A DNA stretch of 64,000 nucleotides from a virus. The notes below the pieces were generated by a model. That model saw only the letters and a program-made list of their open reading frames with translations. It did not search any database and was not told the origin of the DNA. Each line of letters starts with the position of its first letter. The stretch's first letter is position 1. Below are positions 43,202-43,447 of this stretch, piece by piece. A program made the translations under genes and the position numbers. Location: IMG/VR virus record IMGVR_UViG_3300037340_000044, positions 11,843 to 75,842 of that record; one strand, 5' to 3'.

Positions 43202-43447
43202 ATGAACCGTCGTGGATTCTTCGGCCGATTAACTGGCTTCGCGGCTGCAATTGGCATCGGCAAAGTTGTCGAAACGCCAACAGCCATGCTCTACCGCGAC
43301 AAATGCGACGGTGGCAGCACCGTCAATCGCTATGTCAGCACGGATTGCGGTCGGACATGGGCATTCCAAAAGTTCATCGACATGGGCGGCGTGGTCAGCC
43401 CGGAGGAAGCTCGGAAAGCGTTCGGCTTGTCGTCGCCGATGGAGTGA
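43202..43447 (+). CDS. twin-arginine-signal mini-protein with tail-repeat and portal-like fragments
   Basis: AAAGGAGGT SD; MNRRGFF; YRDKCD..NRYVSTDCG; DMGGVVSPEEARKAFGLS. Confidence 0.75.
   Translation: MNRRGFFGRLTGFAAAIGIGKVVETPTAMLYRDKCDGGSTVNRYVSTDCGRTWAFQKFIDMGGVVSPEEARKAFGLSSPME

Follow-up and report, generated by a model that had tools for sequence, protein, structure and literature searches.

Our analysis concerns mini1, a short gene in a stretch of DNA from an uncultured phage, namely bases 11843-75842 of the 75.8-kilobase (kb) IMG/VR record IMGVR_UViG_3300037340_000044, whose completeness is estimated at 78%; this stretch of 64,000 nucleotides (nt) is hereafter called the window. 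We found that mini1 is a genuine gene, that its 81-residue product is a mosaic and a member of a small protein family, and that the gene is an insertion, flanked by conserved genes of the tail and located two genes upstream of the baseplate hub. The original prediction, made from the sequence alone, had described the protein as a leader of the twin-arginine translocation (Tat) type followed by one unit of a tail repeat and by a motif resembling the C-terminal part of the portal protein, and this composition was borne out by BLASTP, by searches of the phage's own genome and by hhalign. The design is thus real, and it looks selected. Our favoured reading, which we hold tentatively and consider quite possible rather than probable, is that mini1 is an accessory gene ("moron") of a peat and permafrost phage, and that its product, a leader joined to virion-derived pieces, is targeted to the cell envelope and takes part in phage-phage competition.

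mini1 is a genuine gene

The open reading frame (ORF) and its strong Shine-Dalgarno (SD) sequence were confirmed, with AAGGAGG at 43188-43194 (+), 7 nt 5' of the ATG, and a protein that starts MNRRGFF. The gene caller's version of mini1 (P0001) uses instead a TTG start at 43166 and is 93 amino acids (aa) long. We prefer the start at 43202 because of the SD sequence and because the two homologues, the paralogue mini2 and the outside protein P0005 (both described below), begin with MNRR. The mini1 frame is the only one with a positive codon-usage score (+0.29, the other frames being negative), its GC content at third codon positions is 0.67 compared with 0.72 in long genes, and a gap of only 3 nt separates its stop codon from the start of the next gene, as in a tightly packed operon. 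The AlphaFold2 model of mini1 computed without an alignment had a predicted local distance difference test (pLDDT) score of 48.5, too low for use, and comparison of mini1 with PHROGs, PADLOC and NCBIfam gave no informative match.

Near-identical DNA was found in peat and permafrost metagenomes from several studies, runs with small word shares having been excluded from this habitat assignment, and the run contigs showed no polymorphism in mini1. One metatranscriptome library contained contigs 100% identical to 43350-43739 and 44127-44470, which cover the 3' end of mini1 and mini2; this is a weak hint that the two genes are expressed, as such contigs may derive from DNA.

The C-terminal end of mini1 resembles the end of the portal domain

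The proposed parallel with the portal was confirmed. Residues 58-79 of mini1 and residues 508-529 of the portal are identical at 11 of 22 positions (pairwise BLASTP, expect value (E) 1e-5), and in tblastn against the six-frame translation of the window the match has an E of 5.5e-4. The resemblance is also significant in profile alignment: a profile of mini1 and P0005, its sole outside homologue, was aligned by hhalign over 40 columns, placing mini1 aa 45-81 onto portal aa 490-531 with a probability of 89.9% and an E of 1.7e-6. No match between the mini1 portal motif and the portal DNA was found by blastn. The portal-like end is an inherited feature of the family and not a fresh capture.

In the portal itself, aa 526 is the last residue of the Portal_Mu match to Pfam, and aa 499-531 align with residues ~378-415 of JBD30 gp32 (the ...LGIPQP region). 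Pfam detected no Portal_Mu domain in mini1, a negative result that is uninformative because the 87%-identical clip piece of mini2 was likewise undetected. With respect to Mu-type portals (PF06074; JBD30 gp32, PDB 8rka), the likeness is that both mini1 and P0005 align to the conserved end of the domain with their last ~30-40 residues, whereas the full fold of wing, stem, clip and crown needs ~300 or more residues. Since mini1 has only 81 residues and lacks wing, stem and clip, it cannot form a portal, and we regard it as a fragment-bearing protein rather than a member of the portal family. Complex prediction for portal residues 60-600 with mini1 residues 26-81 gave an ipSAE of 0.00, which is no answer and speaks neither for nor against binding.

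The portal gene (25828-28686) is a single ORF of 952 codons in which the Portal_Mu domain (aa 254-526) is followed by sigma regions 2 and 4 of the extracytoplasmic function (ECF) type (aa 692-834). A tblastn search with the portal against 50,697 phage records gave no match.

The tail-repeat unit is old, with one putative gene-conversion tract

The middle of mini1 carries, as predicted, one unit of the repeat of the protein encoded at 45602-47512. It matches all five units of that protein (BLASTP E 2e-10 to 1e-6; E 4e-8 to 3e-3 in the own-genome search) and fits their consensus, [FY]-[YR]-[RA]-D-x-C-x(3,4)-N-R-Y-x-S-x-D-C-G, which includes two Cys. Identity between the mini1 unit and the tail units is 50-61% at the nt level and 34-47% at the aa level, compared with 47-62% aa identity among the tail units themselves. 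As it is about as diverged from the tail units as these are from each other, the mini1 unit is an old paralogue and not a fresh copy. An exception is a stretch of 61 nt that shares 80% identity with unit 3; at its end is the exact match of 23 nt that had been pointed out (43328-43350 = 46277-46299), which we verified. It includes seven consecutive identical codons, among them the minor codons TAT and GAT, for which P is ~1.5e-3 under this genome's codon usage. We read the 61-nt stretch as a putative short gene-conversion tract from unit 3.

Searching with mini1, phmmer retrieved proteins with SxDxGxTW (Asp-box) repeats at E ~1e-6, matches that are explained by the S-T-D-C-G-R-T-W of its repeat unit. 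The motif STDCGRTW in mini1 and S-x-D-C-G-x-x-[WY] in the tail units recall BNR/Asp-box repeats, whereas the units described here are only 32-34 aa long, have a conserved Cys pair and give no Pfam BNR match, the one in mini1 included. Elsewhere in the window, a 939-aa protein (1194-4013) contains BNR_2 (sialidase-like, Asp-box) repeats; mini1 and the repeats of the tail tip have this type of motif in a form with Cys.

A twin-arginine-type leader is the constant part of the family

The N-terminus of mini1, M-N-R-R-G-F-F-G-R, contains a twin-arginine motif close to (S/T)-R-R-x-F-L-K. The same motif is found in mini2 and P0005, the mini1 leader being homologous to that of P0005, and leaders of the type MNRRGFFGR...GIGK occur in only two ORFs of the 75.8-kb genome, mini1 and mini2. 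The constant part of the family is this twin-arginine-type leader, MNRR-x-F-[FL]-G ... G-x-G-K.

The designation of the leader as a Tat signal stood only in part. It holds for mini2, which scores 18.6 bits against TIGR01409, above the cut-off of 16.7 (and 14.6 bits against PF10518, below 22.7). P0005 stays below the TIGR01409 cut-off with 12.8 bits, and the mini1 leader gave no match. The h-region of mini1, LTGFAAAIGIG, is short; K21 is present, and PTA/VET stands where an AxA site is expected, while the c-region of mini2 and P0005 has a Lys plus ADA. Tat-signal clusters were found among the ESM-Atlas neighbours, which we take as a lead only, and no TatA gene is encoded by the phage itself. 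From the RR-x-F-F-x-[KR] motif, the Gly/Ala h-region, the c-region Lys, the TIGR01409 score of mini2 and the ESM-Atlas neighbours, we infer that the leader may direct mini1 to the membrane or to the translocon of the Tat system. Twin arginines followed by F and F/L, a basic residue, the Gly/Ala h-region and the c-region Lys are shared with Tat signal peptides, including uncleaved anchors of the Rieske type. One difference lies in the passengers, which here are tiny, cofactor-less pieces of virion proteins and not redox enzymes.

A sister gene, mini2, carries a copy of the portal clip

The original prediction had treated mini1 and mini2 as two independent cases of a Tat leader joined to captured virion-protein epitopes. 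Their independence could not be upheld, as the two leaders are identical at 14 of 32 positions (E 3e-7) and the genes are paralogues. The start codon of mini2 overlaps the stop codon of a 77-aa ORF upstream. Residues 34-78 of mini2 are 87% identical to portal aa 351-395 (45 aa, E 1e-23), and 121 base pairs (bp) are 93.4% identical at the DNA level, with an abrupt loss of identity at both sides. In an alignment with JBD30 gp32, the mini2 piece falls between the stem (residues 211/215) and the tunnel loop (residues 301-325). In JBD30, the adaptor is docked by the portal clip, which also intertwines with the subunits next to it (PMC11445458), and on these grounds we assign the mini2 piece to the clip. 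In the 121-bp core, mini2 and the portal differ by five synonymous codon changes (one of them TCC/AGC for Ser) and two replacements, which suggests, without proving it, that mini2 may be under constraint.

The C-terminus of mini2 did not match the profile of the portal-like motif. We also rejected a candidate for a third piece of the portal (AVPHILKF in mini2, ALPHILQF in the portal, aa 59-66), since it reached only P ~0.012 by shuffling. Self-BLASTP of the genome showed that captured pieces are confined to mini1 and mini2. The word "captured" is itself appropriate for mini2, whose portal piece, 93% identical at the nt level, is the only recent capture, but not for mini1, where the tail unit is old (bar the one short tract) and the portal end inherited. 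For calling the pieces epitopes we found no basis.

One homologue outside this genome, P0005

A phmmer search of 1.8 billion representative proteins returned one true homologue of mini1, P0005, which is 87 aa long, aligns over its full length (E 1.3e-5) and comes from four Logan contigs, the longest of 28 kb. At only ~40% identity to mini1, it retains the reading frame together with the leader and the C-terminal motif. The P0005 leader has 56% identity to the mini2 leader, the final 32 aa of the protein have 50% identity to the portal of the phage studied here (E 2e-7), and its middle is unlike both minis. Only mini1, mini2 and P0005 were found in a profile search of 5.8 billion proteins and in word-index searches, and scans by back-translation, in which P0005 or the alignment of the family served as query, gave no match in IMG/VR, JGI metagenomes or GTDB genomes.

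Conservation of the leader and of the portal-like end around a varying middle argues against a one-off scar and for a small gene family. The cargo of the homologues is thus not a fixed one unrelated to structural genes, and together with the hhalign result this leaves the mosaic description standing. A similarity between the P0005 middle and the clip (TDRVNITL / SDKVNIAV) was not above chance. The thought that the family might be a collinear mini-portal formed by internal deletion stays an idea only, as both this match and that of the third portal piece are weak.

The 5' region of mini1 contains a duplicated 42-bp element

The 42-bp element announced upstream of mini1 was confirmed: 43142-43183 is 100% identical to 15795-15836. 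The 5' region of mini1 is thus clearly a copy of sequence located elsewhere in the genome. The element contains an AT-rich palindrome, TGCAAATTTGCA, with a core, GCAAWWTTGC, that is found 22 times in the 75.8-kb genome, both within and between genes, against ~0.16 expected (~140-fold). Full copies are located at 15802, 17437, 24347, 27828, 43149 and 50271 of the window and at 4267 of the genome, and the 121 bp common to the portal and mini2 include a variant, CTGCAATATTGCAG. Three of the copies precede GGTTTTTACCTATG, the ATG of which starts the genes at 15832 and 17477 (the latter a methyltransferase) and the upstream ORF (uORF) before mini1. The hairpin of the 42-bp element, in which an 8-bp stem encloses a loop of 4 nt and is followed by a T-rich tail, resembles a terminator and scores as an intrinsic one. 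Consequently, the palindrome announced as an operator is real, but operator is one reading only, beside those of a terminator, a centromere-like site and a regulator site.

Two further observations concern these elements. The full palindrome copy in the portal ORF (27818-27844) lies between its Portal_Mu and sigma parts, and a Cpn10/GroES-like gene (16230-16616) directly follows the 133-aa gene that begins in the twin of the 42-bp element.

The minis are insertions in a conserved tail module

The hub served as anchor for the comparison with related loci. It has ~10 homologues, and its AlphaFold2 model (pLDDT 70.6) matches 1wru (Mu gp44) in Foldseek at E 2.5e-4, further matches being to baseplate hubs of P1, PVC and AFP, to VgrG and to siphophage tail proteins. 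Twenty-seven related loci were collected (20 metagenome contigs, 4 IMG/VR records and 3 prophages), the prophages being located in an Alphaproteobacteria metagenome-assembled genome (MAG; 42% identity) and in Planctomycetota MAGs. The gene order in these relatives is a gene of 480-590 aa, variable small ORFs, a gene of ~175 aa and the hub, the last two usually abutting. This is the case in L011, L012, L030, L031 and others, where the slot before the ~175-aa gene holds unrelated small ORFs. None of the 27 loci contains a homologue of mini1, mini2 or P0005 or a small ORF with a twin-arginine leader, and a hidden Markov model of the Cys repeat found this repeat absent from them. Therefore, mini1, and likewise the pair formed by the 77-aa ORF and mini2, are lineage-specific insertions at variable slots. 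The "general scheme" of a Tat leader plus captured virion pieces that had been proposed is accordingly not supported here, with such a gene in 0 of 27 related tail-module loci. Accessory genes appear to have insertion hot spots in this module, one in front of the hub and one in front of the ~175-aa gene. Single-protein scans of IMG/VR with mini1 and with the 178-aa, 441-aa and 271-aa genes found no close relatives.

In many relatives the hub domain continues into a C-terminal extension of 500-1,200 residues within the same protein, whereas in our phage the hub is a separate gene of 271 aa. Hence, the Cys-repeat protein of 636 aa, which is also separate, most likely belongs to the tail tip or central fibre, and it may be the split-off distal part of the hub.

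Table 1. Position of mini1, its parts, their counterparts and neighbouring features in the window
Feature	Position	Strand	Remarks
mini1 coding sequence	43202-43447	+	81 aa plus stop; from the ORF list
mini1 leader, aa 1-27	43202-43282	+	RR at 3-4, FF at 6-7, basic residue at 9, Gly/Ala-rich h-region, K21, then VETPT
One Cys-repeat unit of mini1, aa 30-59	43289-43378	+	Asp-box-like S-T-D-C-G-R-T-W
Portal-like C-terminal motif of mini1, aa 58-79	43373-43438	+	FIDMGGV..EEAR..GL..P; same motif in P0005
Portal aa 499-531, conserved end of the Portal_Mu domain	27322-27420	+	Counterpart of the C-terminal motif of mini1 and P0005
Array of five Cys repeats of 32-34 aa, aa 149-311 of the 636-aa tail-tip protein (45602-47512)	46046-46534	+	
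mini2, 112-aa paralogue	44228-44566	+	Tat-type leader ending in ADA, followed by K; aa 34-78 copied from the portal clip
Portal clip-coding segment, donor of the mini2 piece	26881-27001	+	93.4% nt identity to 44330-44450
42-bp element	43142-43183	+	20-bp perfect palindrome (43145-43164), then ATTGGTTTTTACCTATGCC
Twin 42-bp element	15795-15836	+	Its ATG (15832) starts a 133-aa gene; Cpn10-like gene next
uORF of 8 codons, MPSKEVSP plus stop	43179-43205	+	ATG from the 42-bp element; TGA overlaps the mini1 ATG (ATGA)
Conserved 178-aa tail gene	43451-43987	+	Counterpart (~175 aa) directly abuts the hub in relatives
Baseplate hub, 271 aa (gp27 / Mu gp44 / Tal N-terminal fold)	44579-45394	+	Anchor gene for comparisons

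The unrelated small ORFs before the hub or the ~175-aa gene of relatives include those at 335-727 in L009, 756-956 in L010, 1674-2077 in L015 and 9043-9522 in L011. Inside the tail module of our phage, 37828-39027 encodes a protein with an N-terminal DnaJ J-domain. Other genes of the window encode a B12-binding radical S-adenosylmethionine enzyme (20701-22179), a GT9 heptosyltransferase-like protein (24144-25157) and a 763-aa protein with an N-terminal GT25 domain (48514-50805), the C-terminal part of which is paralogous to 50802-52082 (36% over 195 aa). From 63560 to the end of the window at 64000 runs a long imperfect tandem of GCTGCT/GCTGAT triplets, within an ORF that starts at 63107.

Discussion

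We favour a role of mini1 in competition at the cell envelope. With its leader, the predicted protein would reach the cytoplasmic membrane and the Tat translocon, where it would either be exported or remain as an uncleaved signal anchor. Its body would consist of the old tail unit, refreshed by conversion from unit 3, and of a portal helix received from the family ancestor. These virion-derived pieces, being assembly or binding interfaces, could serve as baits in the envelope, and mini1 may thereby hinder a related phage on its arrival, at the tail tip or the receptor step, and so act in superinfection exclusion. Among the steps of infection, we prefer interference with the tail tip or receptor because mini1 adjoins the hub and tail-tip genes and carries a tail-tip repeat.

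Small exported proteins with such a function are encoded beside receptor-binding or tail genes in several phages: T5 Llp, whose gene llp adjoins that of pb5, and Cor of phi80, N15 and T1-like phages, whose gene cor lies in lambdoid and T1-like tail regions. Like Llp and Cor, mini1 is small, has an N-terminal export-type signal and is an extra gene in a tail-tip module. It differs from them in having no lipobox and no sequence or profile similarity to them, and Llp and Cor are not copies of virion proteins. Likewise, mini1 resembles known chimeric genes and morons, since it lies between conserved genes, is absent from relatives, is made of parts found in the same genome and has its own regulatory-looking element. 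What sets it apart is that one type of leader goes with differing virion pieces in mini1, mini2 and P0005, the frame always being kept, which favours a modular design under selection over a random scar. In the literature we found no described precedent for a Tat leader joined to a virion fragment, nor for a portal mimic or decoy.

Several observations weigh against a role in the envelope. The mini1 leader matches neither PF10518 (E up to 10) nor TIGR01409 (E up to 1), and it lacks both a clean AxA site and a lipobox (L-x-x-C). No homology to known exclusion or defence proteins was found in Pfam, PHROGs and PADLOC. Selection is difficult to assess with a family of three members (mini1, mini2, P0005), which makes for a thin test, and five synonymous changes out of seven in mini2 would be expected with P ~0.1 (an estimate) if the mini2 copy were neutral. 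Above all, a periplasmic location leaves the mini2 clip and the portal helix of mini1 and P0005 unexplained, as portals stay in the capsid. Because this portal cargo has no obvious use in the periplasm, we retain two alternatives, each of which we consider unlikely.

According to one of them, the protein acts in the cytoplasm as a mimic or bait. The leader would park it at the inner face of the membrane or at TatBC, or would not be used at all, and the pieces would bind tail-tip subunits or the partners of the portal, namely the adaptor, the terminase or neighbouring portal subunits. Such binding might regulate or localise assembly, poison the assembly of a competitor or occupy a host sensor of portal proteins. 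The copied pieces are indeed interface parts of the portal, the clip found in mini2 being the part that docks the adaptor in JBD30 and the piece in mini1 and P0005 the most conserved end of the Portal_Mu domain, so that this explanation accounts for the portal cargo better than a periplasmic role does. It is however at odds with the well-formed Tat-type leader and the ADA site conserved in mini2 and P0005, which favour export, and with a positive-inside topology, which would put the body of the protein outside the cytoplasm. Moreover, a bait for the phage's own portal would harm the phage itself. The other alternative, to which we assign a similarly low likelihood, is that mini1 is a by-product of evolution, a chimeric ORF that arose by illegitimate recombination or gene conversion and is perhaps translated but has no selected function. 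Donor-like sequence for the 42-bp element with its start codon, the leader, the tail unit and the portal motif is present in the same genome, relatives lack mini1, and its slots hold unrelated small ORFs in other phages, all of which speaks for such an origin. Yet P0005, at ~40% identity, has kept the frame, the leader and the C-terminal motif; two paralogues are retained in one genome; mini1 has a strong SD sequence of its own and gene-like codon usage; the changes in mini2 are mostly synonymous; and captured pieces are limited to mini1 and mini2 instead of being spread over the genome.

It might also be argued that the shared stretches are maintained for the sake of cis-acting sites in DNA or RNA, such as the dispersed palindromes, rather than as protein modules. 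A full copy of the palindrome lies 5' of mini1, the variant CTGCAATATTGCAG falls in the 121 bp shared by portal and mini2, and the core is enriched ~140-fold. Nevertheless, every shared piece is in the reading frame of its donor, the repeat and portal-like parts of mini1 contain no palindrome, and the protein is conserved in P0005. The similarities of mini1 are, in addition, mainly at the protein level, the portal motif having no blastn match and the tail units sharing 50-61% of nt and 34-47% of aa with the mini1 unit. Since the frame is always kept and the mini1 similarities are mainly those of proteins, we rate this explanation as very improbable.

Beyond the proposed envelope role of mini1, it is conceivable, although we regard it as doubtful, that several phage lineages use a modular class of proteins in which a twin-arginine-type leader is joined to copied self-assembly interfaces of the virion (portal clip, portal C-terminal helix, tail-tip repeat), so that each would act as a homotypic bait that binds its counterpart from the same phage or from a competitor at the membrane, its cargo being renewed by gene conversion as in mini2. 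If this were true, such baits could block the DNA entry or assembly of a competitor, or couple the phage's own assembly to an event at the membrane.

Should the minis prove to be only scars, they would still document that gene conversion between small ORFs and structural genes is unusually active in this phage. If they are functional, their products would be accessory proteins of a new kind, used in competition between phages or in the control of assembly, and the genes a clear case of gene birth by intragenomic copying. Joining a self-assembly piece of the virion to a membrane or export tag would then be a simple route to a new specific binder.

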